Below are positions 3,987-58,255 of a stretch of 64,000 nucleotides of DNA, in pieces. Each line of letters begins with the position of its first letter. Position 1 is the stretch's first letter. The notes under the pieces are model-generated. The model ran no database searches, was not told the DNA's origin, and saw only the letters and a program-made list of their open reading frames with translations. The position numbers and the translations under genes are program-made. This stretch comes from Escherichia coli (GTDB taxonomy: Bacteria; Pseudomonadota; Gammaproteobacteria; Enterobacterales; Enterobacteriaceae), in NCBI RefSeq assembly GCF_030013595.1, contig NZ_CP122768.1; one strand, written 5' to 3'.

Positions 3987-4062
3987 TGGTGGGTGATGAC
4001 GGGATCGAACCGCCGACCCCCTCCTTGTAAGGGAGGTGCTCTCCCAGCTGAGCTAATCACCC
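3987..4062 (-). tRNA. valY: tRNA-Val (anticodon UAC)
   Basis: Reverse complement reads GGGTGATTAGCTCAGCTGGGAGAGCACCTCCCTTACAAGGAGG...CACCCACCA, 76 nt. Confidence 0.95.
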
Positions 4063-4108
4063 ACTTCGGTACTTCACATTTTTACAAGAAATTTAGCTGG
4101 CGAGAAAG

Positions 4109-4184
4109 TGGTGGGTGATGACGGGATCGAACCGCCGACCCCCTCCTTGTAAGGGAGGTGCTCTCCCAGCTGAGCTAATCACCC
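4109..4184 (-). tRNA. valX: tRNA-Val (anticodon UAC), second copy
   Basis: Identical 76-nt sequence to the copy at 3987-4062, separated by a 46-nt spacer. Confidence 0.95.
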
Positions 4185-4442
4185 CCGCTGTGTGGAGTCG
4201 CATTATAGGGAGAGTTCAAAATGAGTCAACGCATTTTCTAAAGAAATTGTTCGTTCGTCGTAAATTTAAGCAAGATGATCGCAAAACAGACCGTTTTGCG
4301 CAATTTGTCAACGAAAACAATAATGCGTAAGGTTGCAACCCGAACTACATTGAGGAATCAGGCGGGAGTGATAGAATATCGCCCACTCAATTTTTCCAGG
4401 ATTTGCCGGTTGTCGGCATCTTTCTAAACGTAAGGCCATTTC

Positions 4443-5858
4443 ATGAAAATCAAAACTCGCTTCGCGCCAAGCCCAACAGGCTATCTGCACGTTGGCGGCG
4501 CGCGTACTGCTCTTTACTCCTGGCTTTTTGCACGTAACCACGGCGGTGAGTTCGTGCTGCGTATTGAAGACACCGATCTTGAGCGTTCCACGCCGGAAGC
4601 TATCGAAGCCATTATGGATGGCATGAACTGGCTGAGCCTGGAGTGGGATGAAGGTCCGTACTACCAGACCAAACGTTTTGATCGCTACAACGCGGTGATC
4701 GATCAGATGCTGGAAGAGGGCACAGCTTATAAATGTTATTGCTCTAAAGAGCGCCTGGAAGCGCTGCGCGAAGAGCAAATGGCGAAAGGTGAGAAGCCGC
4801 GTTATGACGGTCGCTGCCGCCACAGCCATGAGCATCATGCTGATGATGAACCGTGCGTTGTACGTTTTGCTAACCCGCAGGAAGGTTCTGTTGTTTTTGA
4901 CGATCAGATCCGTGGCCCGATTGAGTTCAGCAACCAGGAGCTGGATGATCTGATTATCCGTCGTACCGATGGTTCTCCAACCTATAACTTCTGTGTGGTG
5001 GTTGACGACTGGGATATGGAAATCACCCACGTTATCCGTGGCGAAGACCATATCAACAACACGCCACGCCAGATCAACATTCTTAAAGCACTGAAAGCGC
5101 CGGTACCGGTTTACGCGCACGTTTCTATGATCAACGGCGATGACGGCAAAAAACTGTCCAAACGTCACGGGGCGGTCAGCGTAATGCAGTATCGTGATGA
5201 CGGTTATTTGCCAGAAGCACTGCTGAACTATCTGGTGCGTCTGGGCTGGTCCCACGGCGATCAGGAAATCTTCACTCGTGAAGAGATGATCAAATACTTC
5301 ACCCTGAATGCCGTCAGCAAATCTGCCAGTGCGTTCAACACCGACAAGCTGCTGTGGCTGAACCATCACTACATTAACGCGCTGCCGCCGGAGTATGTTG
5401 CTACTCACTTACAGTGGCACATTGAGCAGGAAAATATCGATACCCGTAACGGCCCGCAGCTGGCTGATCTGGTGAAACTGCTGGGCGAACGCTGCAAGAC
5501 GCTGAAAGAGATGGCACAGAGCTGCCGTTATTTCTACGAAGATTTTGCTGAGTTCGATGCCGACGCCGCGAAAAAACATCTGCGTCCGGTAGCGCGTCAG
5601 CCGCTGGAAGTAGTTCGTGACAAACTGGCCGCGATTACTGACTGGACCGCTGAAAACGTTCATCACGCTATTCAGGCGACGGCGGATGAGCTGGAAGTGG
5701 GCATGGGTAAAGTTGGTATGCCGCTGCGTGTCGCCGTAACCGGTGCGGGGCAGTCTCCGGCGCTGGATGTTACCGTTCACGCAATCGGTAAGACCCGCAG
5801 TATCGAGCGTATCAACAAAGCGCTGGCTTTTATTGCTGAACGCGAAAATCAGCAGTAA
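4443..5858 (+). CDS. gltX: glutamyl-tRNA synthetase
   Basis: 471-aa ORF; class I aaRS HIGH-type motif ([11 protein letters not shown]) and KLSKR motif. Confidence 0.97.
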
Positions 5859-5877
5859 TTAGCGCATAAAAGATAAA

Positions 5878-5908
5878 CGGCAGGAGAGATACCCCTGCCG
5901 TTTTTTAT
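5878..5908. terminator. rho-independent terminator after gltX
   Basis: Hairpin cggcaggagagatacccctgccg followed by TTTTTTATTT. Confidence 0.6.
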
Positions 5909-6301
5909 TTATTCTGATTCATCTATGTCGAGACGAGCAAGGAAATGACGAATTCCTTCGCGTGACAAAAATTGCGCAACTTTTTCCTGCTCACTGTGAG
6001 TCATATTGTCTATTGCGCTGATGATTTGCCGATAAGCAGGGGTGCGAATACCCGGTGCGTATTCGGCAAGGGGTTCTTCGGCTTCCAGAAGCATCGGTGT
6101 GTTATGGAAGGCTGGCGTGTTCTGAATAAACTCGCAAACTTGCGTATCGACCAGAATAAGTCTGGCACGACCGCCTTTCACGCCGGGAAATTTTTCCGTT
6201 TTCCAGCCTTTTTCTCTGATCCAACGGTTAACAGTTTGTTTAGCCACACCGAGGCATTCAGCCAGTTCTTCGGTGGTCATTTTATTGCGTAATCTTTTCA
6301 T
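5909..6301 (-). CDS. yfeD: putative DNA-binding protein YfeD
   Basis: 130-aa ORF, paralogous to adjacent yfeC (shared ...TVNRWIREKGW... motif). Confidence 0.85.
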   Translation of the reverse strand: MKRLRNKMTTEELAECLGVAKQTVNRWIREKGWKTEKFPGVKGGRARLILVDTQVCEFIQNTPAFHNTPMLLEAEEPLAEYAPGIRTPAYRQIISAIDNMTHSEQEKVAQFLSREGIRHFLARLDIDESE

Positions 6302-6302
6302 A

Positions 6303-6647
6303 TTATTTGCTATCGCGAATCCCTAAGCGTTGTAACAATCCGATAATCCCTTCCCGCAGAAGCAAGGATGTAAACTGTTTTTGTTCAACTGGCGTCATCT
6401 CTTTCGCCAGTGTCACCAGCAATACTTCAAGCGGCGCATCACCAGAAAGGGCAGGCGCTTCTCCCTGACCTTCTGGACGTTCAGCATTGCGAATATATTC
6501 ACGAACCTGTTCATTGACGTGAACCAGTCGGGCTTTGCCACCCTGGACGCCAGGTTTTGGTGACGTTGTCCAGCCTTCCTTGCGTACCCATTTATTAATG
6601 GTCTGGCGGCTATAGCCGGTCAGTCTGGCAAGTTCATCTGGCGTCAT
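6303..6647 (-). CDS. yfeC: putative DNA-binding protein YfeC
   Basis: ORF 6303-6662; start refined to ATG 6647 preceded by AGGAGAGG Shine-Dalgarno (114 aa). Confidence 0.85.
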   Translation of the reverse strand: MTPDELARLTGYSRQTINKWVRKEGWTTSPKPGVQGGKARLVHVNEQVREYIRNAERPEGQGEAPALSGDAPLEVLLVTLAKEMTPVEQKQFTSLLLREGIIGLLQRLGIRDSK

Positions 6648-45354: not shown

Positions 45355-45590
45355 TTAGATGATAAATGACAGCAGGAATGTGCCCGCCAGAGCGACGACT
45401 GAAGCGATAAATGTCGCGGTCGTATAGTATTTAAATGTTTCATTGAGCGTAGCGCCGCAATATTGCTTCACCAGCCAGAAAAGCGAGTCCGTAACGATCG
45501 TGCAGCCAATCGCACCTGAACCGATAGCAATCGCAATAATTTCCGGGCTGATGTCGGGATACAGCGGCAGCACAATGATCCATATTTATA
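45355..45590 (-). pseudogene. dsdX: 3' remnant of dsdX (GntP-family D-serine permease), truncated by the csc insertion
   Basis: Only a C-terminal hydrophobic stretch (...SPEIIAIAIGSGAIGCTIVTDSLFWLVKQY...TFLLSFII) remains immediately upstream of dsdA; no N-terminal part and no dsdC; upstream boundary approximate. Confidence 0.7.
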
Positions 45591-45815
45591 TTTTCTTCTC
45601 CAGATTGGCGATGCCAGTTGGCATGTTTTACCTACTTGTCTACATGGTTACTCGTTGGCGAGAACAGAGGCGGAATTGGGTACAATTGTCCGGGAATTAT
45701 TGTTATTTTTTATTGTATTGCCGTGTCGGGTGATAGGGCGTCGAGAATATCGTTGGATCTCGCCAGTGACGTCTGTTTCTGCTACAGTGCCCGTTTTACG
45801 GCAAACGGCTTGGGT

Positions 45816-46811
45816 ATGGCTTCATTAAAGGATGTCGCACGCCTGGCGGGAGTGTCGATGATGACAGTCTCCCGGGTGATGCATAATGCAGAATCTGTGC
45901 GTCCTGCAACGCGTAACCGCGTATTGCAGGCAATCCAGACCCTGAATTATGTTCCTGATCTTTCCGCCCGTAAGATGCGCGCTCAAGGACGTAAGCCGTC
46001 GACTCTCGCCGTGCTGGCGCAGGACACGGCCACCACTCCTTTCTCTGTTGATATTCTGCTTGCCATTGAGCAAACCGCCAGCGAGTTTGGCTGGAATAGT
46101 TTTTTAATCAATATTTTTTCTGAAGATGACGCTGCCCGCGCGGCACGTCAGCTGCTTGCCCACCGTCCGGATGGCATTATCTATACTACAATGGGGCTGC
46201 GACATATCACGCTGCCTGAGTCTCTGTATGGTGAAAATATTGTATTGGCGAACTGTGTGGCGGATGACCCAGCGTTACCCAGTTATATCCCTGATGATTA
46301 CACTGCACAATATGAATCAACACAGCATTTGCTCGCGGCGGGCTATCGTCAACCGTTATGCTTCTGGCTACCGGAAAGTGCGTTGGCAACAGGGTATCGT
46401 CGGCAGGGATTTGAGCAGGCCTGGCGTGATGCTGGACGAGATCTGGCTGAGGTGAAACAATTTCACATGGCAACAGGTGATGATCACTACACCGATCTCG
46501 CAAGTTTACTCAATGCCCACTTCAAATCGGGCAAACCAGATTTTGATGTTCTGATATGTGGTAACGATCGCGCAGCCTTTGTGGCTTATCAGGTTCTTTT
46601 GGCGAAGGGGGTACGTATCCCGAAGGATGTCGCCGTAATGGGCTTTGATAATCTGGTTGGCGTCGGGCATCTGTTTTTACCGCCGCTGACCACAATTCAG
46701 CTTCCACATGACATTATCGGGCGGGAAGCTGCATTGCATATTATTGAAGGTCGTGAAGGGGGAAGAGTGACGCGGATCCCTTGCCCGCTGTTGATCCGTT
46801 GTTCCACCTGA
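45816..46811 (+). CDS. cscR: LacI-family sucrose operon repressor
   Basis: ORF 45618-46811; start refined to ATG 45816 (MASLKDVARLAGVSMMTVSRV..., 331 aa); LacI-type HTH plus periplasmic-binding-protein fold. Confidence 0.85.
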   Translation: MASLKDVARLAGVSMMTVSRVMHNAESVRPATRNRVLQAIQTLNYVPDLSARKMRAQGRKPSTLAVLAQDTATTPFSVDILLAIEQTASEFGWNSFLINIFSEDDAARAARQLLAHRPDGIIYTTMGLRHITLPESLYGENIVLANCVADDPALPSYIPDDYTAQYESTQHLLAAGYRQPLCFWLPESALATGYRRQGFEQAWRDAGRDLAEVKQFHMATGDDHYTDLASLLNAHFKSGKPDFDVLICGNDRAAFVAYQVLLAKGVRIPKDVAVMGFDNLVGVGHLFLPPLTTIQLPHDIIGREAALHIIEGREGGRVTRIPCPLLIRCST

Positions 46812-46818
46812 TATTATG

Positions 46819-48252
46819 TTAACCCAGTTGCCAGAGTGCTCCATGTTGCAGCACAGCCACTCCGTGGGAGGCATAGAGCGACAGTTCCCGTTCTTCTGGC
46901 TGCGGATATATTCGGCTACTCATCACCGCCTCCCCGTCGTTAATAAATACTTCCACGGATGATGTATCGATAAATATCCTTAGGGCGAGCATGTCACCCT
47001 GCGGGAGGGGAATACTACGGTAGCCATCTAAATTCTCGTGTGGGTAATACCGCCACAAAACAAGTCGCTCAGATTGGTTATCAATATACAGCCGCATTCC
47101 AGCGCCGAGCTGTAATCCGTAATGTTCGGCATCACTGTTCTTCAGCGCCCACTGCAACTGAATCTCAACTGCTTGCGCGTTTTCCTGCAAAACATATTTA
47201 TTGCTGATTGTGCGGGGAGAGATAGATTGATGCTGCTGGCGTAACGACTCAGCTTCGTGTACCGGGCGTTGTAGGAGTTTGCCATTGCTCTCTGATAGCT
47301 CGCGCGCCAGCGTCATGCAGCCTGCCCAGCCTTCACGTTTTGAGGGCATTGGCGATTCCCACATATCCATCCAGCCGATAACAATACGCCGACCATCCTT
47401 CGCTACAAAGCTTTGTGGTGCATAAAAGTCATGCCCGTTATCAAGTTCAGTAAAATGCCCGGATTGTGCAAAAAGTCGTCCTGGCGACCACATTCCGGGT
47501 ATTACGCCACTTTGAAAGCGATTTCGATAACTGTATCCCTCGGCATTCATTCCCTGCGGGGAAAACATCAGATAATGCTGATCGCCAAGGCTGAAAAAGT
47601 CCGGACATTCCCACATATAGCTTTCACCCGCATCAGCGTGGGCCAGTACGCGATCGAAAGTCCATTCACGCAATGAACTGCCGCGATAAAGCAGGATCTG
47701 CCCCGTGTTGCCTGGGTCTTTCGCCCCGACTACCATCCACCATGTGTCGGCTTCACGCCACACTTTAGGATCGCGGAAGTGCATGATGCCTTCTGGTGGA
47801 GTGAGGATCACACCCTGTTTCTCGAAATGAATACCATCCCGACTGGTAGCCAGACATTGTACTTCGCGAATTGCATCGTCATTACCTGCACCATCGAGCC
47901 AGACGTGTCCGGTGTAGATAAGTGAGAGGACACCATTGTCATCGACAGCACTACCTGAAAAACACCCGTCTTTGTCATTCTCGTCTCCTGGCGCTAGCGC
48001 AATAGGCTCATGCTGCCAGTGGATCATATCGTCGCTGGTGGCATGTCCCCAGTGCATTGGCCCCCAGTGTTCGCTCATCGGGTGATGTTGATAAAACGCG
48101 TGATAACGATCGTTAAACCAGATCAGGCCGTTTGGATCGTTCATCCACCCGGCAGGAGGCGCGAGGTGAAAATGGGGATAGAAAGTGTTACCTCGGCGCT
48201 CGTGAAGTTTTGCTAGTGCGTTTTGCGCCGCATGCAATCGAGATTGCGTCAT
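46819..48252 (-). CDS. cscA: sucrose-6-phosphate hydrolase/invertase (GH32)
   Basis: ORF 46819-48261 (start 48252 or 48261); GH32 motifs WMNDPNG and RDP present. Confidence 0.9.
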   Translation of the reverse strand: MTQSRLHAAQNALAKLHERRGNTFYPHFHLAPPAGWMNDPNGLIWFNDRYHAFYQHHPMSEHWGPMHWGHATSDDMIHWQHEPIALAPGDENDKDGCFSGSAVDDNGVLSLIYTGHVWLDGAGNDDAIREVQCLATSRDGIHFEKQGVILTPPEGIMHFRDPKVWREADTWWMVVGAKDPGNTGQILLYRGSSLREWTFDRVLAHADAGESYMWECPDFFSLGDQHYLMFSPQGMNAEGYSYRNRFQSGVIPGMWSPGRLFAQSGHFTELDNGHDFYAPQSFVAKDGRRIVIGWMDMWESPMPSKREGWAGCMTLARELSESNGKLLQRPVHEAESLRQQHQSISPRTISNKYVLQENAQAVEIQLQWALKNSDAEHYGLQLGAGMRLYIDNQSERLVLWRYYPHENLDGYRSIPLPQGDMLALRIFIDTSSVEVFINDGEAVMSSRIYPQPEERELSLYASHGVAVLQHGALWQLG

Positions 48253-48286
48253 TTTAATCATCCTGGTTAAGCAAATTTGGTGAATT

Positions 48287-48298
48287 GTTAACGTTAAC
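48287..48298. promoter_or_regulatory. putative CscR operator (palindrome GTTAACGTTAAC), copy 1
   Basis: Perfect 12-bp palindrome in the divergent cscA/cscK promoter region. Confidence 0.4.
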
Positions 48299-48350
48299 TT
48301 TTATAAAAATAAAGTCCCTTACTTTCATAAATGCGATGAATATCACAAAT

Positions 48351-48362
48351 GTTAACGTTAAC
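48351..48362. promoter_or_regulatory. putative CscR operator (palindrome GTTAACGTTAAC), copy 2
   Basis: Identical 12-bp palindrome 52 bp from copy 1. Confidence 0.4.
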
Positions 48363-48467
48363 TATGACGTTTTGTGATCGAATATGCATGTTTTAGTAAA
48401 TCCATGACGATTTTGCGAAAAAGAGGTTTATCACTATGCGTAAGTCAGATGAATTTAAGGGAAAAAA

Positions 48468-49382
48468 ATGTCAGCCAAAGTATGGGTTTTAGGGGATGCG
48501 GTCGTAGATCTCTTGCCAGAATCAGACGGGCGGCTACTGCCTTGTCCTGGCGGCGCGCCAGCTAACGTTGCGGTGGGAATCGCCAGATTAGGCGGAACAA
48601 GTGGGTTTATAGGTCGGGTCGGTGATGATCCTTTTGGTGCGTTAATGCAAAGAACGCTGCTAACTGAGGGTGTCGATATCACGTATCTGAAGCAAGATGA
48701 ATGGCACCGGACATCCACGGTGCTTGTCGATCTGAATGATCAAGGAGAACGTTCATTTACGTTTATGGTCCGCCCCAGTGCCGATCTTTTTTTAGAGACG
48801 ACAGACTTGCCCTGCTGGCGACATGGCGAATGGTTACATCTCTGTTCAATTGCGTTGTCTGCCGAGCCTTCGCGTACCAGCGCATTTACTGCGATGACGG
48901 CGATCCGGCATGCCGGAGGTTTTGTCAGCTTCGATCCCAATATTCGTGAAGATCTATGGCAAGACGAGCATTTGCTCCGCTTGTGTTTGCGGCAGGCGCT
49001 ACAACTGGCGGATGTCGTCAAGCTCTCGGAAGAAGAATGGCGACTTATCAGTGGAAAAACACAGAACGATCGGGATATATGCGCGCTGGCAAAAGAGTAT
49101 GAGATCGCCATGCTGTTGGTGACTAAAGGTGCAGAAGGGGTGGTGGTCTGTTATCGAGGACAAGTTCACCATTTTGCTGGAATGTCTGTGAATTGTGTCG
49201 ATAGTACTGGGGCGGGAGATGCGTTCGTTGCCGGGTTACTCACAGGTCTGTCCTCTACGGGGTTATCTACAGATGAGAGAGAAATGCGACGAATTATTGA
49301 TCTTGCTCAACGTTGCGGAGCGCTTGCAGTAACGGCGAAAGGGGCGATGACAGCGCTGCCATGTCGACAAGAACTGGAATAG
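48468..49382 (+). CDS. cscK: fructokinase (PfkB/ribokinase family)
   Basis: 304-aa ORF with GAGDAF motif. Confidence 0.9.
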   Translation: MSAKVWVLGDAVVDLLPESDGRLLPCPGGAPANVAVGIARLGGTSGFIGRVGDDPFGALMQRTLLTEGVDITYLKQDEWHRTSTVLVDLNDQGERSFTFMVRPSADLFLETTDLPCWRHGEWLHLCSIALSAEPSRTSAFTAMTAIRHAGGFVSFDPNIREDLWQDEHLLRLCLRQALQLADVVKLSEEEWRLISGKTQNDRDICALAKEYEIAMLLVTKGAEGVVVCYRGQVHHFAGMSVNCVDSTGAGDAFVAGLLTGLSSTGLSTDEREMRRIIDLAQRCGALAVTAKGAMTALPCRQELE

Positions 49383-49453
49383 TGAGAATTAAACGGCGAA
49401 GTCGCTCTTATCTCTAAATAGGACGTGAATTTTTTAACGACAGGCAGGTAATT

Positions 49454-50701
49454 ATGGCACTGAATATTCCATTCAGAAATGCGTACTATCGTTTGGCATC
49501 CAGTTACTCATTTCTCTTTTTTATTTCCTGGTCGCTGTGGTGGTCGTTATACGCTATTTGGCTGAAAGGACATCTAGGATTAACAGGGACGGAATTAGGT
49601 ACACTTTATTCGGTCAACCAGTTTACCAGCATTCTATTTATGATGTTCTACGGCATCGTTCAGGATAAACTCGGTCTGAAGAAACCGCTCATCTGGTGTA
49701 TGAGTTTCATTCTGGTCTTGACCGGACCGTTTATGATTTACGTTTATGAACCGTTACTGCAAAGCAATTTTTCTGTAGGTCTAATTCTGGGGGCGCTCTT
49801 TTTTGGCCTGGGGTATCTGGCGGGATGCGGTTTGCTTGACAGCTTCACCGAAAAAATGGCGCGAAATTTTCATTTCGAATATGGAACAGCGCGCGCCTGG
49901 GGATCTTTTGGCTATGCTATTGGCGCGTTCTTTGCCGGTATATTTTTTAGTATCAGTCCCCATATCAACTTCTGGTTGGTCTCGCTATTTGGCGCTGTAT
50001 TTATGATGATCAACATGCGTTTTAAAGATAAGGATCACCAGTGCATAGCGGCGGATGCGGGAGGGGTAAAAAAAGAGGATTTTATCGCAGTTTTCAAGGA
50101 TCGAAACTTCTGGGTTTTCGTCATATTTATTGTGGGGACGTGGTCTTTCTATAACATTTTTGATCAACAACTCTTTCCTGTCTTTTATGCAGGTTTATTC
50201 GAATCACACGATGTAGGAACGCGCCTGTATGGTTATCTCAACTCATTCCAGGTGGTACTCGAAGCGCTGTGCATGGCGATTATTCCTTTCTTTGTGAATC
50301 GGGTAGGGCCAAAAAATGCATTACTTATCGGTGTTGTGATTATGGCGTTGCGTATCCTTTCCTGCGCGTTGTTCGTTAACCCCTGGATTATTTCATTAGT
50401 GAAGCTGTTACATGCCATTGAGGTTCCACTTTGTGTCATATCCGTCTTCAAATACAGCGTGGCAAACTTTGATAAGCGCCTGTCGTCGACGATCTTTCTG
50501 ATTGGTTTTCAAATTGCCAGTTCGCTTGGGATTGTGCTGCTTTCAACGCCGACTGGGATACTCTTTGACCACGCAGGCTACCAGACAGTTTTCTTCGCAA
50601 TTTCGGGTATTGTCTGCCTGATGTTGCTATTTGGCATTTTCTTCCTGAGTAAAAAACGCGAGCAAATAGTTATGGAAACGCCTGTACCTTCAGCAATATA
50701 G
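49454..50701 (+). CDS. cscB: sucrose:H+ symporter (MFS, LacY-like)
   Basis: 415-aa 12-TM ORF. Confidence 0.9.
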   Translation: MALNIPFRNAYYRLASSYSFLFFISWSLWWSLYAIWLKGHLGLTGTELGTLYSVNQFTSILFMMFYGIVQDKLGLKKPLIWCMSFILVLTGPFMIYVYEPLLQSNFSVGLILGALFFGLGYLAGCGLLDSFTEKMARNFHFEYGTARAWGSFGYAIGAFFAGIFFSISPHINFWLVSLFGAVFMMINMRFKDKDHQCIAADAGGVKKEDFIAVFKDRNFWVFVIFIVGTWSFYNIFDQQLFPVFYAGLFESHDVGTRLYGYLNSFQVVLEALCMAIIPFFVNRVGPKNALLIGVVIMALRILSCALFVNPWIISLVKLLHAIEVPLCVISVFKYSVANFDKRLSSTIFLIGFQIASSLGIVLLSTPTGILFDHAGYQTVFFAISGIVCLMLLFGIFFLSKKREQIVMETPVPSAI

Positions 50702-51143
50702 ACGTAAACTTTTTCCGGTTGTTGTCGATATCTCCATATCCCTCAACCGGAAAATAATAATACAAAAATGCTTAGCCCAACTAATAATCACCTAATCCAA
50801 ACGCCTCATTCATGTTCTGGTACAGTCGCTCAAATGTACTCCGGATACGCGGTTCGCTGATTTCCAGGACATTGTCGTCATTCAGCGACCTGTCCCGAGT
50901 ATCACGGGCCTGCGAATTCATCAAGGAATGCATTGCAGAGTGAAGTATCGAGTCACGCCATATTTCGCTATCAGGATTCTGTATGATGGTTACATCGCCC
51001 GGCCCAGGGCTGTTTAGTCATCAGCGCTTTCTGACAGTGCTGAGATTTCAACCTGTTGCAGTAAAAATGAGTAGATATAGGGCAAGTGTGCTGCCAAACC
51101 CATCTTTTACGGGGTGAAGGTAGATTTGGTTTGAAGGGTATCT

Positions 51144-51158
51144 GGTGTCCCCTGCAGA
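51144..51158. other. putative prophage att core (attR): 15-nt identity to the 3' end of tRNA-Arg argW
   Basis: Minus strand reads CTGCAGGGGACACCA, matching the argW 3' terminus as recalled, without the rest of the tRNA; lies about 70 bp from the torI-like gene. Confidence 0.45.
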
Positions 51159-51230
51159 CATCTACTTGAGGCGGCAGGGGATTGATTGGAATGGTGTTTT
51201 TTAGATGTGAAAAATATTTTACCCGCTATT

Positions 51231-51431
51231 TTACCCATTGGCGCGGCTTAAGAGCTTATTTTTGAATTCACAATGGTCACGATATAACCATCTTGCTCGC
51301 CCGTGGATAACTTTGGCTTTTGGCAGGTCGCCGGACTTAATCCGGTCATAGATGAAGGTTTTACCGAATCCAGTATCGGCCATGATGAATTTCAAATCAA
51401 CCAGTGAATCAGGCTGTAGTTCGTGTTGCAT
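51231..51431 (-). CDS. torI: AlpA/Xis-family excisionase (recombination directionality factor), TorI-like
   Basis: 66-aa ORF at the prophage edge next to the att core; size and position match KplE1 TorI; identity from recall. Confidence 0.6.
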   Translation of the reverse strand: MQHELQPDSLVDLKFIMADTGFGKTFIYDRIKSGDLPKAKVIHGRARWLYRDHCEFKNKLLSRANG

Positions 51432-51562
51432 GAGTGCTATCTCCGAATAGGGAATCGAACCTGCAAATCAGGCAATAAAAAACCGCCATCAGGCGGCTTG
51501 GTGTTCTTTCAGTTCTTCAATTCGAATATTGGTTACATTGTTTTAATATATGAATAAATAAA

Positions 51563-51775
51563 TTAGCTTTTTTCGTTGCCTTCGCGTTCTTTATTAATTT
51601 TAACAAACTCGTTTTTACCACGCTCTCCAAATGCGTCTTTAGAGTCGTTGTATCCGCAATCGCAGCACACATAATCACCAGACCATCCACGCATTGTTTT
51701 TTCTTTTGCAATATTTCCAGAACCGCATTTTGGACAAGACATATCACTACCTCCAAAGCATGAGTGAGATGACAA
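51563..51775 (-). CDS. small Cys-rich zinc-finger protein (lambda Ea8.5 position)
   Basis: 70-aa ORF with CPKCGSG...CCDCGYN zinc-ribbon-like motifs. Confidence 0.4.
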   Translation of the reverse strand: MSSHSCFGGSDMSCPKCGSGNIAKEKTMRGWSGDYVCCDCGYNDSKDAFGERGKNEFVKINKEREGNEKS

Positions 51776-51838
51776 CGTAACATTGATTGGAGATTAACAA
51801 TAGATTGCTGATGTAAAAGATATGTATAAGCTTCGCTT

Positions 51839-52393
51839 TCAAAGTGGAGGCTCTGGTAGCGGCATCCAGTGTGACGGCTCACATACCACCTCAACACCGT
51901 TCATGTAAAAGAATTGAAATAACCCTTTACCTTTGTGAAACCCTACCATCTGCTCTTTTGTGTCTGAACAATAAACCAAAACATCTTCTTCGTTTGGCAT
52001 CCACTCACTACAGCTTATCCAACCATCTGGAATTACCGGAGAGTTGCCCGACATCTCATTCAACTTGTAAGTCTGGCTTACAGGTTTGGCTTCCAGTTCT
52101 GCAATGCGCTTACCTCCATCCGCGATTACTCCCTCGTAATATTCACGCTGCTCGTTGAGTTTTGATTTTGCTTCCTCAAGCTCAACTCTCAGCTTCCCTA
52201 CCGTTAGCGCAATATCCTCGTTCTCCTGGTCACGGCGTTTGATGTATTGCTGGTTTCTTTCCCGTTCATCCAGCAGTTCCAGCACAATCGATGGTGTTAC
52301 CAATTCATGGAAAAGGTCTGCGTCAAATCCCCAGTCGTCATGCATTGCCTGCTCTGCCGCTTCACGCAGTGCCTGAGAGTTAATTTCGCTCAC
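51839..52393 (-). CDS. Ead/Ea22-like early protein (DUF551-type)
   Basis: 184-aa ORF at the Ea22 position of the lambda early-left operon. Confidence 0.55.
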   Translation of the reverse strand: MSEINSQALREAAEQAMHDDWGFDADLFHELVTPSIVLELLDERERNQQYIKRRDQENEDIALTVGKLRVELEEAKSKLNEQREYYEGVIADGGKRIAELEAKPVSQTYKLNEMSGNSPVIPDGWISCSEWMPNEEDVLVYCSDTKEQMVGFHKGKGLFQFFYMNGVEVVCEPSHWMPLPEPPL

Positions 52394-52611
52394 TTCGAAC
52401 CTCTCTGTTTACTGATAAGTTCCAGATCCTCCTGGCAACTTGCACAAGTCCGACAACCCTGAACGGCCAAGCGTCTTCGTTCATCTATCGGATCGCCACA
52501 CTCACAACAATGAGTGGCAGATATAGCCTGGTGGTTCAGGCGGCGCATTTTTATTGCTGTGTTGCGCTGTAATTCTTCAATTTCTGATGCTGAATCAATG
52601 ATGTCTGCCAT
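52390..52611 (-). CDS. TraR/DksA-family C4 zinc-finger protein
   Basis: 73-aa ORF with CxxC-17-CxxC motif (CCECGDPIDERRRLAVQGCRTCASC). Confidence 0.55.
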   Translation of the reverse strand: MADIIDSASEIEELQRNTAIKMRRLNHQAISATHCCECGDPIDERRRLAVQGCRTCASCQEDLELISKQRGSK

Positions 52612-52709
52612 CTTTCATTAATCCCTGAATTGTTGGTTAATACGCTTGAGGGTGAATGCGAATAATAAAAAAGGAGCCTGTAGCTCCATGATGATTTTGT
52701 TTTTCATGC

Positions 52710-52991
52710 TCACCGTTCCTTAAAGACGCCGTTTAACATGCCGATCGCCAGGCTTAAATGAGTCGGTGTGAATCCCATCAGCGTTACCGTTTCGCGGTGC
52801 TTCTTCAGTACGCTACGGCAAATGTCATCGACGTTTTTATCCGGAAACTGCTGTCTGGCTTTTTTGATTTCATAATTAGCCTGACGGGCAATACTGCGAA
52901 GGGCGTTTTCTTGCTGAGGTGTCATTGAACAAGTCCCATGTCGGCAAGCATAAGCACACAGAATATGAAGCCCGCTGCCAGAAAAATGCAT
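52710..52991 (-). CDS. hypothetical phage early protein
   Basis: 93-aa ORF, co-oriented in the early-left operon; start uncertain. Confidence 0.35.
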   Translation of the reverse strand: MHFSGSGLHILCAYACRHGTCSMTPQQENALRSIARQANYEIKKARQQFPDKNVDDICRSVLKKHRETVTLMGFTPTHLSLAIGMLNGVFKER

Positions 52992-53001
52992 TCAGTGGTT
53001 G

Positions 53002-53193
53002 TCATACCTGGTCTCTCTCATCTGCTTCTGCTTTCGCCACCATCATTTCCAGCTTTTGTGAAAGGGATGTGGCTAACGTATGAAATTCTTCGTCTGTTTC
53101 TACTGGTATTGGCACAAACCTGACTCCAATTTGAGCGAGGCTATGTGCCATCTCGATACTCGTTCTTAACTCAACGGGAGATGCTTTGTGCAT
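53002..53193 (-). CDS. hypothetical phage early protein (lambda orf63 position)
   Basis: 63-aa ORF. Confidence 0.35.
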   Translation of the reverse strand: MHKASPVELRTSIEMAHSLAQIGVRFVPIPVETDEEFHTLATSLSQKLEMMVAKAEADERDQV

Positions 53194-53354
53194 ACAGCCC
53201 CCCGTTTATTATTTATCTCCTCAGCCAGCCGCTGGGCTTTCAGTGGATTTTGGATAACAGAAAGGCCGGGAAATACCCAGCCTCGCTTTGTAACGGAGTA
53301 GACGAAAGTGATCGCGCCTACCCGGATATTATCGTGAGGATGCGTCATCGCCAT
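53166..53354 (-). CDS. hypothetical phage early protein (lambda orf60a position)
   Basis: 62-aa ORF overlapping exo stop. Confidence 0.3.
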
Positions 53355-54025
53355 TGCTCCCCAAATACAAAACCAATTTCAGCCAGTGCCTCGTCCATTT
53401 TTTCGATGAACTCCGGCACCATCTCGTCAAAACTCGCCATGTACTTTTCATCCCGCTCAACCACGACATAATGCAGTCCTTCACGCTTCATACGCGGGTC
53501 ATAGTTGGCAAAGTACCAGGCATCTTTTCGCGTCACCCACATGCTGTACTGCACCTGGGCCATGTAAGCCGACTTTATGGCCTCGAAACCACCGAGCCGG
53601 AACTTCATGAAATCCCGGGAGGTAAACGGGCATTTCAGCTCAAGGCCATTGCCGTCACTGCATAAACCATCGGGAGAGCAGGCGGTGCGCATACTTTCGT
53701 CGCGATAGATGATCGGGGATTCAGTAACATTCACGCCGGAAGTGAATTCAAACAGGGTTCTGGCGTCGTTCTCGTACTGTTTTCCCCAGGCCAGCGCCTT
53801 AGCATTAACTTCCGGAGCCACACCGGTGCAAACCTCAGCCAGCAGGGTGTGGAAGTAGGACATTTTCATGTCAGGCCACTTCTTTCCTGAGCGGGGCTTT
53901 GCTATCACGTTGTGAACTTCTGAAGCGGTGATGACGCCGAGCCGTAATTTGTGCCACGCATCATCCCCCTGTTCGACAGCTCTCACGTCGATCCCGGTAC
54001 GCTGCAGGATAATGTCCGGTGTCAT
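53345..54025 (-). CDS. exo: lambda-type 5'-3' exonuclease (Red-alpha)
   Basis: 226-aa ORF, YqaJ-type recombinase exonuclease; followed by bet and gam. Confidence 0.9.
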
Positions 54026-54807
54026 GCAGCCACCTTCTGTTCAGAGGCTTTCTGTTTCAGGAATCCAAGAGCTTTCACTGCTTCGGCCTGTGTCAGTTCT
54101 GACGATGCGCGAATGTCGCGGCGAAATATCTGGGAACAGAGCGGCAATAAGTCGTCATCCCATGTTTTATCCAGGGCGATCAGCAGAGTGTTAATCTCCT
54201 GCATGGTTTCATCGTTAACCGGAGTGATGTCGCGTTCCGGCTGGCGTTCTGCAGTGTGTGCAGTATTTTCGACAATGCGCTCGGCTTCATCCTTGTCATA
54301 GATACCAGCAAATCCGAAGGCCAGACGGGCACACTGAATCATGGCTTTATGCCGTAACATCCGTTTGGGATGCGACTGCCACGCCCCCGTGATTTCTCTG
54401 CCTTCGCGAGTTTTGAATGGTTCGCGGCGGCATTCATCCATCCATTCGGTAACGCAGATCGGATGATTACGGTCCTTGCGGTAAATCCGGCATGTACAGG
54501 ATTCATTGTCCTGCTCAAAGTCCATGCCATCAAACTGCTGGTTTTCATTGATGATGCGGGACCAGCCATCAACGCCCACCACCGGAACGATGCCGTTCTG
54601 CTTATCAGGGAAGGCGTAAATTTCTTTCGTCCACGGATTAAGGCCGTACTGGTTGGCGACGATCAACAATGCGATGAACTGCGCATCGCTGGCATCACCT
54701 TTAAATGCCGTCTGGCGAAGAGTGGTGATCAGTTCCTGTGGGTCGACAGAATCCATGCCGACACGTTCAGCCAGCTTCCCTGCCAGCGTTGCGAGTGCTG
54801 TACTCAT
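54022..54807 (-). CDS. bet: single-strand annealing protein Bet (Red-beta)
   Basis: 261-aa ORF; overlaps exo start as in lambda. Confidence 0.9.
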
Positions 54808-54812
54808 CCGTT

Positions 54813-55109
54813 TTATACCTCTGAATCAATATCAACCTGGTGGTGAGCAATGGTTTCAACCATGTACCGGATGTGTTCTGCCATGCGCTCCTGAAACTCA
54901 ACATCGTCATCAAACGCACGGGTAATGGCTTTTTTGCTGGCCCCGTGGCGTTGCAAATGATCGATGCATAGCGATTCAAACAGGTGCTGGGGCAGGCCTT
55001 TTTCCATGTCGTCTGCCAGTTCTGCCTCTTTCTCTTCACGAGCGATCTGCTGGTAGTGACGCGCCCAGCTCTGAGCCTCAAGACGATCCTGAATGTAATA
55101 AGCGTTCAT
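54813..55109 (-). CDS. gam: host-nuclease (RecBCD) inhibitor Gam (short form)
   Basis: 98-aa [24 protein letters not shown]... matching lambda GamS as recalled. Confidence 0.9.
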
Positions 55110-55184
55110 GGCTGAACTCCTGAAAATGGCTGTGAAAATAGCGCCCGCGAAATGCCAGGCTGATTAGGAAAACAGGAAAGGGGG

Positions 55185-55328
55185 TTAGTGAATGCTTTTG
55201 CTTGATCTCAGTTTCAGCATTAATATCCATTTTTTATAAGCGTCGACGGCTTCACGAAACATCTTTTCATCGCCAATAAAAGTGGCGATAGTGAATTTAG
55301 TCTGGATAGCCATAAGTGTTTGATCCAT
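55185..55328 (-). CDS. kil: host-killing protein Kil
   Basis: 47-aa [12 protein letters not shown]... within ORF 55185-55454; overlaps cIII by 32 nt as in lambda. Confidence 0.8.
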
Positions 55329-55461
55329 TTTTTGGGACTCCTGGCTGATTAAGTATGTCGATAAGGCGTTTCCATCCGTCACGTAATTTACGGGTGATTC
55401 GTTCAAGTAAAGATTCGGAAGGGCAGCCAGCAACAGGCCACCCTGCAATGGCATATTGCAT
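55297..55461 (-). CDS. cIII: cIII (FtsH protease inhibitor)
   Basis: Manual translation gives [54 protein letters not shown] (54 aa); below ORF-track cutoff. Confidence 0.85.
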   Translation of the reverse strand: MQYAIAGWPVAGCPSESLLERITRKLRDGWKRLIDILNQPGVPKNGSNTYGYPD

Positions 55462-55533
55462 GGTGTGCTCCTTATTTATACATAACGAAAAACGCCTCGA
55501 GTGAAGCGTTATTGGTATGCGGTAAAGCCGCGC

Positions 55534-55845
55534 TTAGGCGGCTGATGTTTCTTCTTTCAGGCTTTCGAGATATTTACGTGGGTCGTCGTAACATTGGCAT
55601 TCGCTGTACCAATCCACCCAGCGATCAGTAAGCCCCACCTCTGATAAATCTTCATCGGTAAGGCTCTCATCCCACATCTCAAGGCCGTTAGCATTGCAGT
55701 AATCAGGCTTGATGTTGTTGTCATACTGAAAGGCGTCATAATCAGCCAGTGCGTCCATCAGGCGAACACCCTCTTCAACACTTGCCACTTCTACAATGAA
55801 CGGCTTCATAGGTACTTGCGGGATATGCCAGACACGTAATTTCAT
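55534..55845 (-). CDS. hypothetical acidic protein (lambda ea10 position)
   Basis: 103-aa ORF, strongly acidic, Trp/Cys-containing. Confidence 0.5.
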   Translation of the reverse strand: MKLRVWHIPQVPMKPFIVEVASVEEGVRLMDALADYDAFQYDNNIKPDYCNANGLEMWDESLTDEDLSEVGLTDRWVDWYSECQCYDDPRKYLESLKEETSAA

Positions 55846-55989
55846 ATTTCCTCCGTCAAAAAAATGCCCTCACACTGGAGGGCAAAGAAGATTTCCAATA
55901 ATCAGAACAAGTCGGCTCCTGTTTAGTTACGAGCGACATTGCTCCGTGTATTCACTCGTTGGAATGAATACACAGTGCTTATTCGCAGC

Positions 55990-56316
55990 CTACATAATCA
56001 TTCCGGTTATTATTACCATTTCAATATCGCTATCTTTCATAATGATTGGAGTTGAGTTATCAACTTTACTTTTACTCCATTTTCCTGCATCAGTTTTTAC
56101 CGCTCCACAATAAGAAAGCCAATCATCATCACAATGTTCTGGATCACTAATTCTGACAAGAACACGTGATAGTGCTTTTTCGATACTTTCATCACAATTA
56201 GCATTTGTGTAATTGCCGTGAGACAATTTCAAATCGTTAACTTCATCTTCATTGGCATCAAAAATATAGATTTCAGTCGACTCTGGAACATTTTCATAAA
56301 CCATTAAAACTTTCAT
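55990..56316 (-). CDS. hypothetical protein, AT-rich moron-like gene
   Basis: ORF 55990-56397; likely start ATG 56316 (MKVLMVYENVPE...) after GGGG RBS; low GC relative to flanks. Confidence 0.45.
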   Translation of the reverse strand: MKVLMVYENVPESTEIYIFDANEDEVNDLKLSHGNYTNANCDESIEKALSRVLVRISDPEHCDDDWLSYCGAVKTDAGKWSKSKVDNSTPIIMKDSDIEMVIITGMIM

Positions 56317-56356
56317 TTTTACCCCATATTGTTTATGCCAAAAATAAAGGCCACCA

Positions 56357-56557
56357 TTAGGCAGCCTTGTTGTTCTGTTTACCAAGTTCTCTGGCAATCA
56401 TTGCCGTCGTTCGTATTGCCCATTTATCGACATATTTCCCATCTTCCATTACAGGAAACATTTCTTCAGGCTTAACCATGCATTCCGATTGCAGCTTGCA
56501 TCCATTGCATCGTTTGAATTGTCCACACCATTGATTTGTATCAATAGTCGTAGTCAT
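56357..56557 (-). CDS. ral: Ral-like small Cys-rich protein (restriction alleviation), tentative
   Basis: 66-aa ORF with CGQFKRCNGC motif at the ral position and size; identity from recall. Confidence 0.5.
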   Translation of the reverse strand: MTTTIDTNQWCGQFKRCNGCKLQSECMVKPEEMFPVMEDGKYVDKWAIRTTAMIARELGKQNNKAA

Positions 56558-56627
56558 ACGGATAGTCCTGGTATTGTTCCATCACATCCTGAGGATGCTC
56601 TTCGAACTCTTCAAATTCTTCTTCCAT
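56541..56627 (-). CDS. possible 28-aa acidic leader peptide (MEEEFEEFEEHPQDVMEQYQDYPYDYDY)
   Basis: Short ORF with strong GAGGTGA RBS 6 nt upstream of ATG; its stop overlaps the ral-like start. Confidence 0.25.
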   Translation of the reverse strand: MEEEFEEFEEHPQDVMEQYQDYPYDYDY

Positions 56628-56685
56628 ATCTCACCTCAAATAAGTGGTTTGCTGCCTAATTTCATTTTCTGGCGACCAACACAAG

Positions 56686-56958
56686 TCATCTTGCTGTCAG
56701 CTGTTTGGATTTCCTGTAGCCTGCCGCGTAAATGGCTACATTTGGAAGACAAGTTGAGCCTTCATATTTTCTGGTCAACGTTGTCAGTGTTATTACTTCT
56801 GCTCTCATTACTGGTTTGCGTTTGCATTGTAAGACCACTCGTGAAGGGGTTGGCCTGTGTAGCTTGTCAGAGCTGATCGCCTCCTGACTTTGCAGGTTTG
56901 CACGACGAGCTCTACGGCGAGAAGCTGCGGTGCCTTTAAATTCTGTTTTTCTGGACAT
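56686..56958 (-). CDS. N-like transcription antiterminator (P22 gene 24 type)
   Basis: ORF 56686-57030; start refined to ATG 56958 after GGGAGGA RBS; arginine-rich motif AASRRRARRANLQ; C-terminus ...IYAAGYRKSKQLTAR. Confidence 0.75.
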   Translation of the reverse strand: MSRKTEFKGTAASRRRARRANLQSQEAISSDKLHRPTPSRVVLQCKRKPVMRAEVITLTTLTRKYEGSTCLPNVAIYAAGYRKSKQLTAR

Positions 56959-57056
56959 AGATTCCTCCCGAATAAACTTTGGCGATGCAATCTCGAAGCT
57001 CCTCCTGAGACGGTTGCTTCGGCATTGCATCCCACAGCTTATATGGTTGGGTGATC

Positions 57057-57397: not shown

Positions 57398-58255
57398 TTA
57401 TCGTTTATTTCTTTGATGTTTCTTTGCTGACTCAGCTTGAGTGTTTCCATACCTGCGTTTACCGCTATTGTTTTTTCCTCTAGGCTTGCCTTTTTTTCGA
57501 TCTTCCCACCAGTCAGGTGCCGGGTCTGGCTCAACATGTAAAGCATCGGCAAGTCCTGATATCAAGCTGTATGACTGAACTCCATCAATGTGCTCTGACA
57601 GTGATGGGGTAACATTCTGTCTTAGTGGATCAAGAATAAAATCAATACCTTTAATTCTGGCGTGTTTGGCGGCAGGCACAAAGTCTGAGTCCCCAGCAAC
57701 AAGGACAATTACATCAACAAGTTTTTCATAAGCTAAAGTCGTGATATCCATCCCTAGCTTGATATCAACTTGTTTTTGTTTGATGTCATAGTAAAAATCA
57801 TCATTTGTCAGTTCATCCCATTTTTTCGTTCCTTTCATCAGAGCATCAAGGGAGAATGTAGTTAGTTGCCATCGCTTATTATCAACAAGATTCCCTAATC
57901 TTAAGGCTGTTTTTCGAGTTTTTCTTAACTCTTCATGCAGCTCCGTTCTCAGAATATATGATTTTTCGAGTTTGAAATTCTTGCGACCAGGCGTCTTATT
58001 GCCAGGCTCAGGAAGTGGAAGGCGTGTTTGAATGTCGAGTGGTGGACAGTCATAGAAGTAAATTCTATAAAGCTCAAGCGGTTCCCTACGTTCTTGTGAT
58101 TGACGTTTTCCATTAAGATGGGAAAGAACCATTGACCATATTACTTTCATTATGCATTGCGCAGTCAGTTCATGCTCGGCGAAGTGTTTACGATGCGTAG
58201 CATGAACACGCTGCATGAAAAAACCCGCATCAATTAAAATTGCTGCTTTCTTCAT
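57398..58255 (-). CDS. NYN/LabA-like (PIN-fold) nuclease-domain protein with Lys/Arg-rich C-terminal tail; candidate prophage exclusion/defence protein in the rex position
   Basis: 285-aa ORF: N-terminal AILIDAGFF and central VLVAGDSDFVPAAKHARIKGIDF NYN-type motifs; basic tail; between cI and pL/N; AT-rich. Confidence 0.75.
   Translation of the reverse strand: MKKAAILIDAGFFMQRVHATHRKHFAEHELTAQCIMKVIWSMVLSHLNGKRQSQERREPLELYRIYFYDCPPLDIQTRLPLPEPGNKTPGRKNFKLEKSYILRTELHEELRKTRKTALRLGNLVDNKRWQLTTFSLDALMKGTKKWDELTNDDFYYDIKQKQVDIKLGMDITTLAYEKLVDVIVLVAGDSDFVPAAKHARIKGIDFILDPLRQNVTPSLSEHIDGVQSYSLISGLADALHVEPDPAPDWWEDRKKGKPRGKNNSGKRRYGNTQAESAKKHQRNKR

Follow-up and report, generated by a model that had tools for sequence, protein, structure and literature searches.

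Introduction

Phage lambda has its Xis sites on attR and transcribes int from pI and pL. The IntS/TorI module, best described for prophage KplE1 of E. coli K-12, carries the sites for its recombination directionality factor (RDF) and its int promoter on attL, and its integrase is autoregulated (PMC2951348). In KplE1 the intS promoter overlaps attL, five TorI sites are present on attL, a TAAA motif has been reported for the P' arm-type sites of IntS on attL, and the core was published as a 16-nt sequence, CTGCAGGGGACACCAT; the torI promoter, PtorI, is uncharacterised in the KplE1 literature (PMC2951348). Excision that depends on TorI and IntS and gives attB and attP has been shown for KplE1 and HK620 substrates (PMC2951348, PMC3509656), and the published 135-bp attR substrate begins at CTCTTAAGCCGCGCCAATGG in the 3' end of torI (PMC3509656). 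On the bacterial side, the csc genes replace dsdCX, and argW has been described as a recombination hotspot for csc (PMC4366372).

Here we describe the junction between the csc block and a prophage in a 64-kb stretch of E. coli DNA (the window, to whose first nucleotide all positions refer). We conclude with high confidence that positions 51143-51250 are attR of a lambdoid prophage with an IntS/TorI module of the KplE1/HK620/Sf6 type, inserted in the 3' end of argW, the gene of tRNA-Arg(CCU). Since all of its features fit the well-studied KplE1/HK620/Sf6 module together with the known csc/argW arrangement, the junction represents already known biology, namely the well-described attR of an HK620/KplE1-type prophage, and nothing new. 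The features are collected in Table 1.

Table 1. Features of the csc/prophage junction and its surroundings, by position in the window.
Feature	Position	Strand	Remarks
cscB (sucrose permease)	49454..50701	+	415-aa ORF; cscB / oligosaccharide MFS transporter in related genomes
attR parts: B' flank, core, P arm	50702..51142, 51143..51157, 51158..51250		
B' flank of attR (bacterial)	50702..51142	.	follows argW directly at its 3' end in csc+ genomes with an unoccupied site
Perfect 11-nt inverted repeat TTTTCCGGTTG / CAACCGGAAAA, 22-nt loop	50711..50754	.	just past the cscB stop; T-run on neither strand
DUF4942 pseudogene relic	50790..51076	-	truncated at both ends; overlaps the 50-aa ORF 50781-50933
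att core	51143..51157	-	15-nt copy of the argW 3' end; counterpart of K-12 pawZ
Candidate core-type dyad GATGTC-TGCAGGG-GACACC	51144..51162	-	sequence comparison
P arm of attR (phage side)	51158..51250	-	last torI codons to core; 98.6% identical to HK620 attP
Second arm of inverted repeat, GCAGGGGA, and IHF-like site AATCAATCCCCTG	51174..51187	-	AATCAATCCCCTG at 51175-51187
Two direct repeats GGGTAAAATA, arm-type Int sites	51215..51236	-	one overlaps the torI stop codon
torI (excisionase / RDF)	51231..51431	-	66 aa; annotated torI in relatives
Homologue of the pI ('phage integration') promoter	51438..51476	-	mapped from HK620 GenBank features; cII-dependent in HK620
Intrinsic-terminator-like hairpin with T-run	51480..51499	-	between early-left genes and torI
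Lambdoid early-left operon	51563..57030	-	Pfam scans; reads towards torI

Results

The att core and the limits of homology

The 15-mer TGGTGTCCCCTGCAG at 51143-51157, of which this is the sole copy within the window, is the reverse complement of the final 15 nt of argW (CTGCAGGGGACACCA, minus strand), with all 15 nt matching. A preliminary description of this DNA had reported the copy of the argW 3' end, which is indeed present, at 51144-51158; its true position is one base to the left. The argW sequence used for this comparison was checked against the K-12 gene and agreed with it. The alignments with related sequences end at the edges of the same 15 nt. Strain EFF60, in which csc and the same small ORF are followed directly by a tRNA-Arg gene and which therefore represents the unoccupied site, shares 99.9% identity with the window, coming from the left, as far as 51157, that is, up to 15 nt into argW. 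From the other side, the 97.6% identity to K-12 CPS-53/KplE1 runs from 51481 and breaks off exactly at 51143, and the equivalent 15 nt are annotated in K-12 as the pseudo-tRNA pawZ. The attP of HK620 matches from 51143 rightwards with 98.6-98.7% identity to the junction; for HK620 and Sf6 taken together the identity is 98.3-98.7%, and the feature annotated in them as 'attP core' lies at 51142-51157. The 15-mer is thus the only stretch in which homology to the host and homology to the phage overlap, an overlap that marks a site-specific recombination core, and the exact prophage boundary is now fixed at 51143-51157. The identity is 15 nt here, as against the 16 nt published for KplE1, because the csc+ host flank begins with G and the K-12 flank with T.

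Two sequence elements at the core were considered with regard to the recombination reaction. By the lambda paradigm, the dyad at 51144-51162 would be a candidate for two Int core sites that enclose an overlap of 7 bp; it is perfect (GGTGTC/GACACC) in Erwinia phage EhrS49. The other element is an inverted repeat with 8-nt arms, TCCCCTGC at 51148-51155 and GCAGGGGA at 51174-51181, 18 nt apart, which had been said to flank the core; the arms are there, but one is part of the core itself and the other belongs to the phage arm. As core-type sites, the dyad appears to be a more canonical candidate than this repeat. Of 20000 shuffles of the flank, 167 (~0.8%) had an inverted match of 8 nt to the core within 60 nt. 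Phages of E. coli, Erwinia and Klebsiella all keep the block CAA.CCCCTGC invariant at a fixed spacing of 18 nt, although the spacer itself has diverged. The phage-side arm overlaps AATCAATCCCCTG, a putative IHF site by its resemblance to the consensus WATCAANNNNTTR, and the core arm is fixed by the tRNA sequence; on these grounds the conservation of the repeat probably stems from protein-binding sites and not from a hairpin.

The P arm, torI and its transcription

The product of the prophage gene adjoining the P arm, torI, is 100% identical to K-12 TorI and to HkaC of HK620. As is characteristic of the IntS/TorI module, torI is the last gene of the prophage and is read towards the attR core. 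Because of this direction of transcription, the core adjoins the 3' end of torI, past the stop codon, and not its promoter. The preliminary description was accurate in placing the core about 70 bp from a torI-like gene (73 nt separate the torI stop codon from the core) and in recognizing a KplE1-type attR at argW with the excisionase gene at the same end, a reading that the boundaries with EFF60, K-12 and HK620 fit. Its idea of a torI promoter at attR has to be corrected on both counts: the core, said to lie next to the torI promoter, is found 73 nt beyond the stop codon, and as to the excisionase promoter overlapping attR, the annotated pI maps upstream of torI, while in KplE1 it is the intS promoter that overlaps an att site, and that site is attL.

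The pI promoter of HK620/Sf6 is the only promoter annotated near torI, and is located upstream of the gene, about 280 nt from the core. A simple scan for sigma-70 promoters in 50600-51900 found 0 sites against 2.9 expected. Directly upstream of torI is a terminator-like hairpin, and beyond it the early-left operon, with Lar-like, Ead/Ea22-DUF551, exo (YqaJ), bet (RecT), gam, gp17-like and N genes, faces torI; we count both as support for the proposed explanation. We infer that torI is reached by antiterminated early-left transcription: on induction, N-antiterminated transcripts from the early-left operon would read through the terminator at 51480-51499 into torI. An Rfam scan returned nothing close to gathering scores; a match to the sRNA STnc130 at 51381-51508 (+), antisense to the 5' end of torI, reached 25 bits against a gathering score of 55 and was judged a chance match, as its alignment rests mostly on the terminator hairpin. 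Farther into the prophage, an ORF of 285 aa with an NYN (RNase-like) domain was seen at 57398-58255 (-), between the N and cI-like repressor genes; it could represent a moron or a gene for defence within the immunity region.

The P arm is conserved and carries arm-type repeats, as expected of an IntS/TorI module. The two GGGTAAAATA repeats contain the TAAA motif, are invariant across diverged phages (Erwinia and Klebsiella relatives), and fall in a stretch (51215-51236) that is annotated as an attP repeat in the HK620 GenBank record. An ORF of 43 aa at 51107-51238 (-), the counterpart of hkaB in HK620 and of gene 17 in Sf6, spans the P arm and the core; as its 3' part is host DNA in the prophage, it is chimeric and probably meaningless.

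Upstream of torI, 35 nt from its ATG, the 16-mer TTGCAGGTTCGATTCC at 51451-51466 (-) is identical to nt 46-61 of argW, the T arm, which runs directly into the att core in the tRNA gene. This 16-mer, which includes the TorI-site motif GTTCG, is conserved in K-12, HK620 (1455-1470 of the sequence compared), Sf6 and MS14384; in HK620 it falls within the annotated cII site / pI promoter. In Erwinia phage Midgardsormr38 the same place (about 375-415 of the sequence compared) is occupied by two tandem copies of CAGGTTCGATTCC, and the motif was not found in Klebsiella phage Chronis, Erwinia phage EhrS49 or Salmonella phage Emek. We put forward only tentatively, as something we hold to be rather doubtful, that the 16-mer is more than a chance match or a passive relic: it might be an operator that mimics the tRNA T arm, for example for TorI autoregulation or for cII control of a pI-like promoter, or else torI and the P arm might have been inserted into an ancestral attP carrying 30 nt of argW.

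The csc flank and the DUF4942 relic

The cscB gene is the last of the csc block and abuts the junction region; the repeat at 50711-50754, just beyond it, may from its sequence form a transcript-end hairpin. The B' flank is 99.9% identical to EFF60, where it directly adjoins tRNA-Arg. A flank bearing the relic described below was found in 2644 of 5426 complete E. coli genomes, or about half, and the whole junction is common to 371 complete genomes. In comparison to K-12, a block of 5.57 kb at 45573-51142, comprising cscR, cscA, cscK, cscB and the DUF4942 relic, takes the place of the attR flank, of dsdC and of 1.1 kb at the 5' end of dsdX, with one boundary exactly at the argW 3' end and the other inside dsdX. 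The csc/DUF4942-relic block is thus host DNA and not phage DNA.

Between cscB and the core, the preliminary description had seen an ORF remnant on the minus strand at about 50780-50930, which was confirmed as a 50-aa ORF, MHSLMNSQARDTRDRSLNDDNVLEISEPRIRSTFERLYQNMNEAFGLGDY, at 50781-50933. The origin of this ORF, given there as unknown, could be resolved by Pfam, tblastn and HMMER searches and by the PGAP label of the ORF in relatives ('DUF4942 domain-containing protein'): it is a fragment of a DUF4942 pseudogene. The match to Pfam PF13708 is marginal (26.1 bits against a cut-off of 25, E 8e-6) and covers only profile positions 18-62 of 190. In a tblastn search with P0029, a 261-aa homologue, residues 76-151 matched 51017-50790, and residues 38-70 matched 51076-50978 in another frame with two stops, the latter a weak match (E 0.002 in a very small search space). 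The homology to P0029 (261 aa) therefore extends over residues 38-151 and is interrupted by a frameshift and stop codons, a complete DUF4942 domain in an intact frame was not found, and these features together with the partial cover of the profile identify a gene fragment and not a member protein of the DUF4942 family. Relative to APEC O2-211, whose ORF is 79 aa long, the window has a 1-nt insertion in a G-run. When the relic was used in a word-indexed protein search, all matches were further copies of it, called at 44 to 85 aa, from complete genomes and long contigs; an exhaustive HMMER search returned full-length relatives at about 50% identity, and neither search found an intact close relative above about 60% identity.

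The context of the full-length gene was read in E. coli genomes, the contig with the best relative being only 1.7 kb long. Full-length copies close the radC-yeeT-cbeA-cbtA-DUF5983-DUF957-DUF4942 module of CP4-44-like islands. The relic itself has the orientation of the tRNA gene, is separated by about 66 nt from the argW 3' end, and is all that lies between that end and cscB; the P4-type integrase by a tRNA and the radC-yeeT-cbeA-cbtA genes that mark a CP4-44-like island were not found there. The relic is the decayed middle portion of a gene that closes CP4-44-like integrative islands, and it most likely stems from an older island that targeted argW and was later mostly deleted; its derivation from an island is suggested by where the full-length DUF4942 genes sit.

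Far end and extent of the prophage

A sequence search of the window found neither a second core nor a longer argW fragment, and ARAGORN found no argW and no other tRNA-Arg in it. The right edge of the window falls within the replication/nin region, where the prophage is still continuing, so that the window stops short of its far end. In MS14384, which has the same junction, the second core is at argW, 41,270 bp away, with intS adjoining, and the two cores bound a P22-like prophage; the mosaic of that prophage differs from the window beyond 51536. The earlier placement of the integrase at the opposite end is borne out in this relative, whereas for the prophage studied here that end is beyond the window. 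Among complete E. coli genomes, none covered at least 80% of 51100-57000, and the same prophage mosaic was not found.

In ETEC L7_E1373 (NZ_LR882990.1), region 4001-6359 has cscB, 77 nt, ISEc46 (TnpB/TnpA), an N-terminal intS pseudogene and argW. We considered the 77 nt left after cscB as a natural module boundary and rejected this in favor of an ISEc46-associated deletion, which took out the DUF4942 relic and most of an argW prophage.

Discussion

Taken together, these data fit the following sequence of events. In integration, a phage attP with the order torI - P arm - core - P' arm - intS recombined with the argW 3' end. At the end seen here, this joined torI, the P arm and a core copy of 15 nt to the DNA normally 3' of argW; the other product, argW with the core, the P' arm and intS, would lie at the far end, beyond the window. 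Excision most likely follows the scheme worked out for KplE1 and HK620, from which we carry it over by analogy: TorI would bind attL, IntS would bind the arm-type GGGTAAAATA repeats and the core, IHF would bend the arms, and recombination of attL with attR would restore the argW-relic-csc order (attB) and release a circular attP.

Of the other readings of the junction, the one that would undo this scheme altogether is that the 15-mer matches argW by coincidence and that the prophage boundary is elsewhere, a doubt raised by the preliminary description itself; that only one core copy is visible in the window would also agree with it. Against this, the argW sequence was verified, the homology to the empty site ends at 51157 and that to attP and the K-12 attR at 51143, which are the two edges of the 15-mer, the same copy carries the pawZ / attP core annotation, and the chance expectation for such a 15-mer is 0.04 per window even if up to two mismatches are allowed. 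The alignment of attB, attP, attL and attR refutes a coincidental match, and we give that reading practically no credence. Accepting an attR at argW, one could still suppose that it belongs to a short cryptic remnant such as K-12 KplE1/CPS-53, which is 10 kb long and without an immunity region, and not to a full-length lambdoid prophage, given that the recombination module is 97.6% identical to CPS-53 and that the far end is unseen. We regard this as very unlikely, since the window holds at least 12.8 kb of prophage including N, gam, bet, exo, a cI-like repressor, cII, O and P, none of which is present in CPS-53, since the prophage still runs on at the end of the window, and since relatives with the same junction are P22-like prophages of about 41 kb.

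The elements on either side of the core allow different interpretations as well. The 50-aa ORF at 50781-50933 forms an open frame, annotated by PGAP as a CDS in many genomes, and its DNA is 93-100% conserved in 2644 genomes, as might be expected if it were a functional small gene. However, its match to the DUF4942 profile is confined to positions 18-62 of 190, indels make the length at which it is called differ from strain to strain (44, 50, 54, 60, 73 or 79 aa), the homology runs on upstream in another frame with stop codons, and no promoter-like site was found in the simple sigma-70 scan; there is thus very little likelihood of a functional gene, and the ORF is best described as part of the DUF4942 pseudogene relic. 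For the inverted repeat, the alternative to protein-binding sites is an RNA hairpin on the torI transcript, either a terminator or a sib-like retroregulator whose presence would depend on the integrated or excised state. The repeat does lie on this transcript, the predicted fold includes the hairpin, and both the improbability of such a repeat beside the core by chance (167/20000 shuffles) and its retention at a fixed 18-nt spacing in diverged phages would speak for a function of this kind. Its folding energy, however, is ordinary (z = -1.06, not significant, with 30 of 200 shuffles folding as well), no T-run follows, and both arms are contained in attP as well as in attR, so that the two states would not differ; the overlap with the IHF-like sequence and the position of the other arm in the core explain the conservation by protein-binding constraints. 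We therefore rejected the hairpin, which seems improbable, and keep to the reading of the repeat as protein-binding sites.

The importance of these findings beyond correct annotation is slight. In thousands of genomes, the CDS labeled 'DUF4942 domain-containing protein' beside argW is a pseudogene fragment. For assays of attB and attP formed by excision in csc+ strains, the expected primers and products are now defined.

With regard to known systems, the junction is closest to those of KplE1 and of the Lederbergvirus phages HK620 and Sf6. It shares with K-12 KplE1 (CPS-53) the argW site, the core, a TorI that is 100% identical, the torI-P arm-core segment at 97.6% identity and the 73-nt spacing, but K-12 has an identity of 16 nt and a dsdC flank where the window has 15 nt and a flank of DUF4942 relic and csc, and the K-12 element is a 10-kb remnant without an immunity region, whereas the prophage in the window has a full early region. 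With HK620 and Sf6 it has in common a torI (hkaC / gene 18)-P arm-core segment that is 98.3-98.7% identical, and the annotated arm repeats, attP core and pI promoter of these phages all map onto the window; they are free phage genomes with an intact attP, in contrast to the recombined half-site seen here, and the early-left genes of the window form a different mosaic beyond 51536. The relic resembles the DUF4942 genes of CP4-44-like islands in matching Pfam DUF4942 and in aligning with residues 38-151 of the 261-aa P0029, but it has only about 50% identity, is truncated at both ends and is frameshifted, while the island gene of strain SCU-482 is 280 aa long; the other island genes and the island integrase are absent from the window. 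Finally, the junction is like lambda attR and int-xis in having a tyrosine integrase with arm-type and core-type sites, an RDF, IHF and a short identity core, and it differs from lambda in that the order of the IntS/TorI module is xis-attP-int, so that integration separates the two genes.
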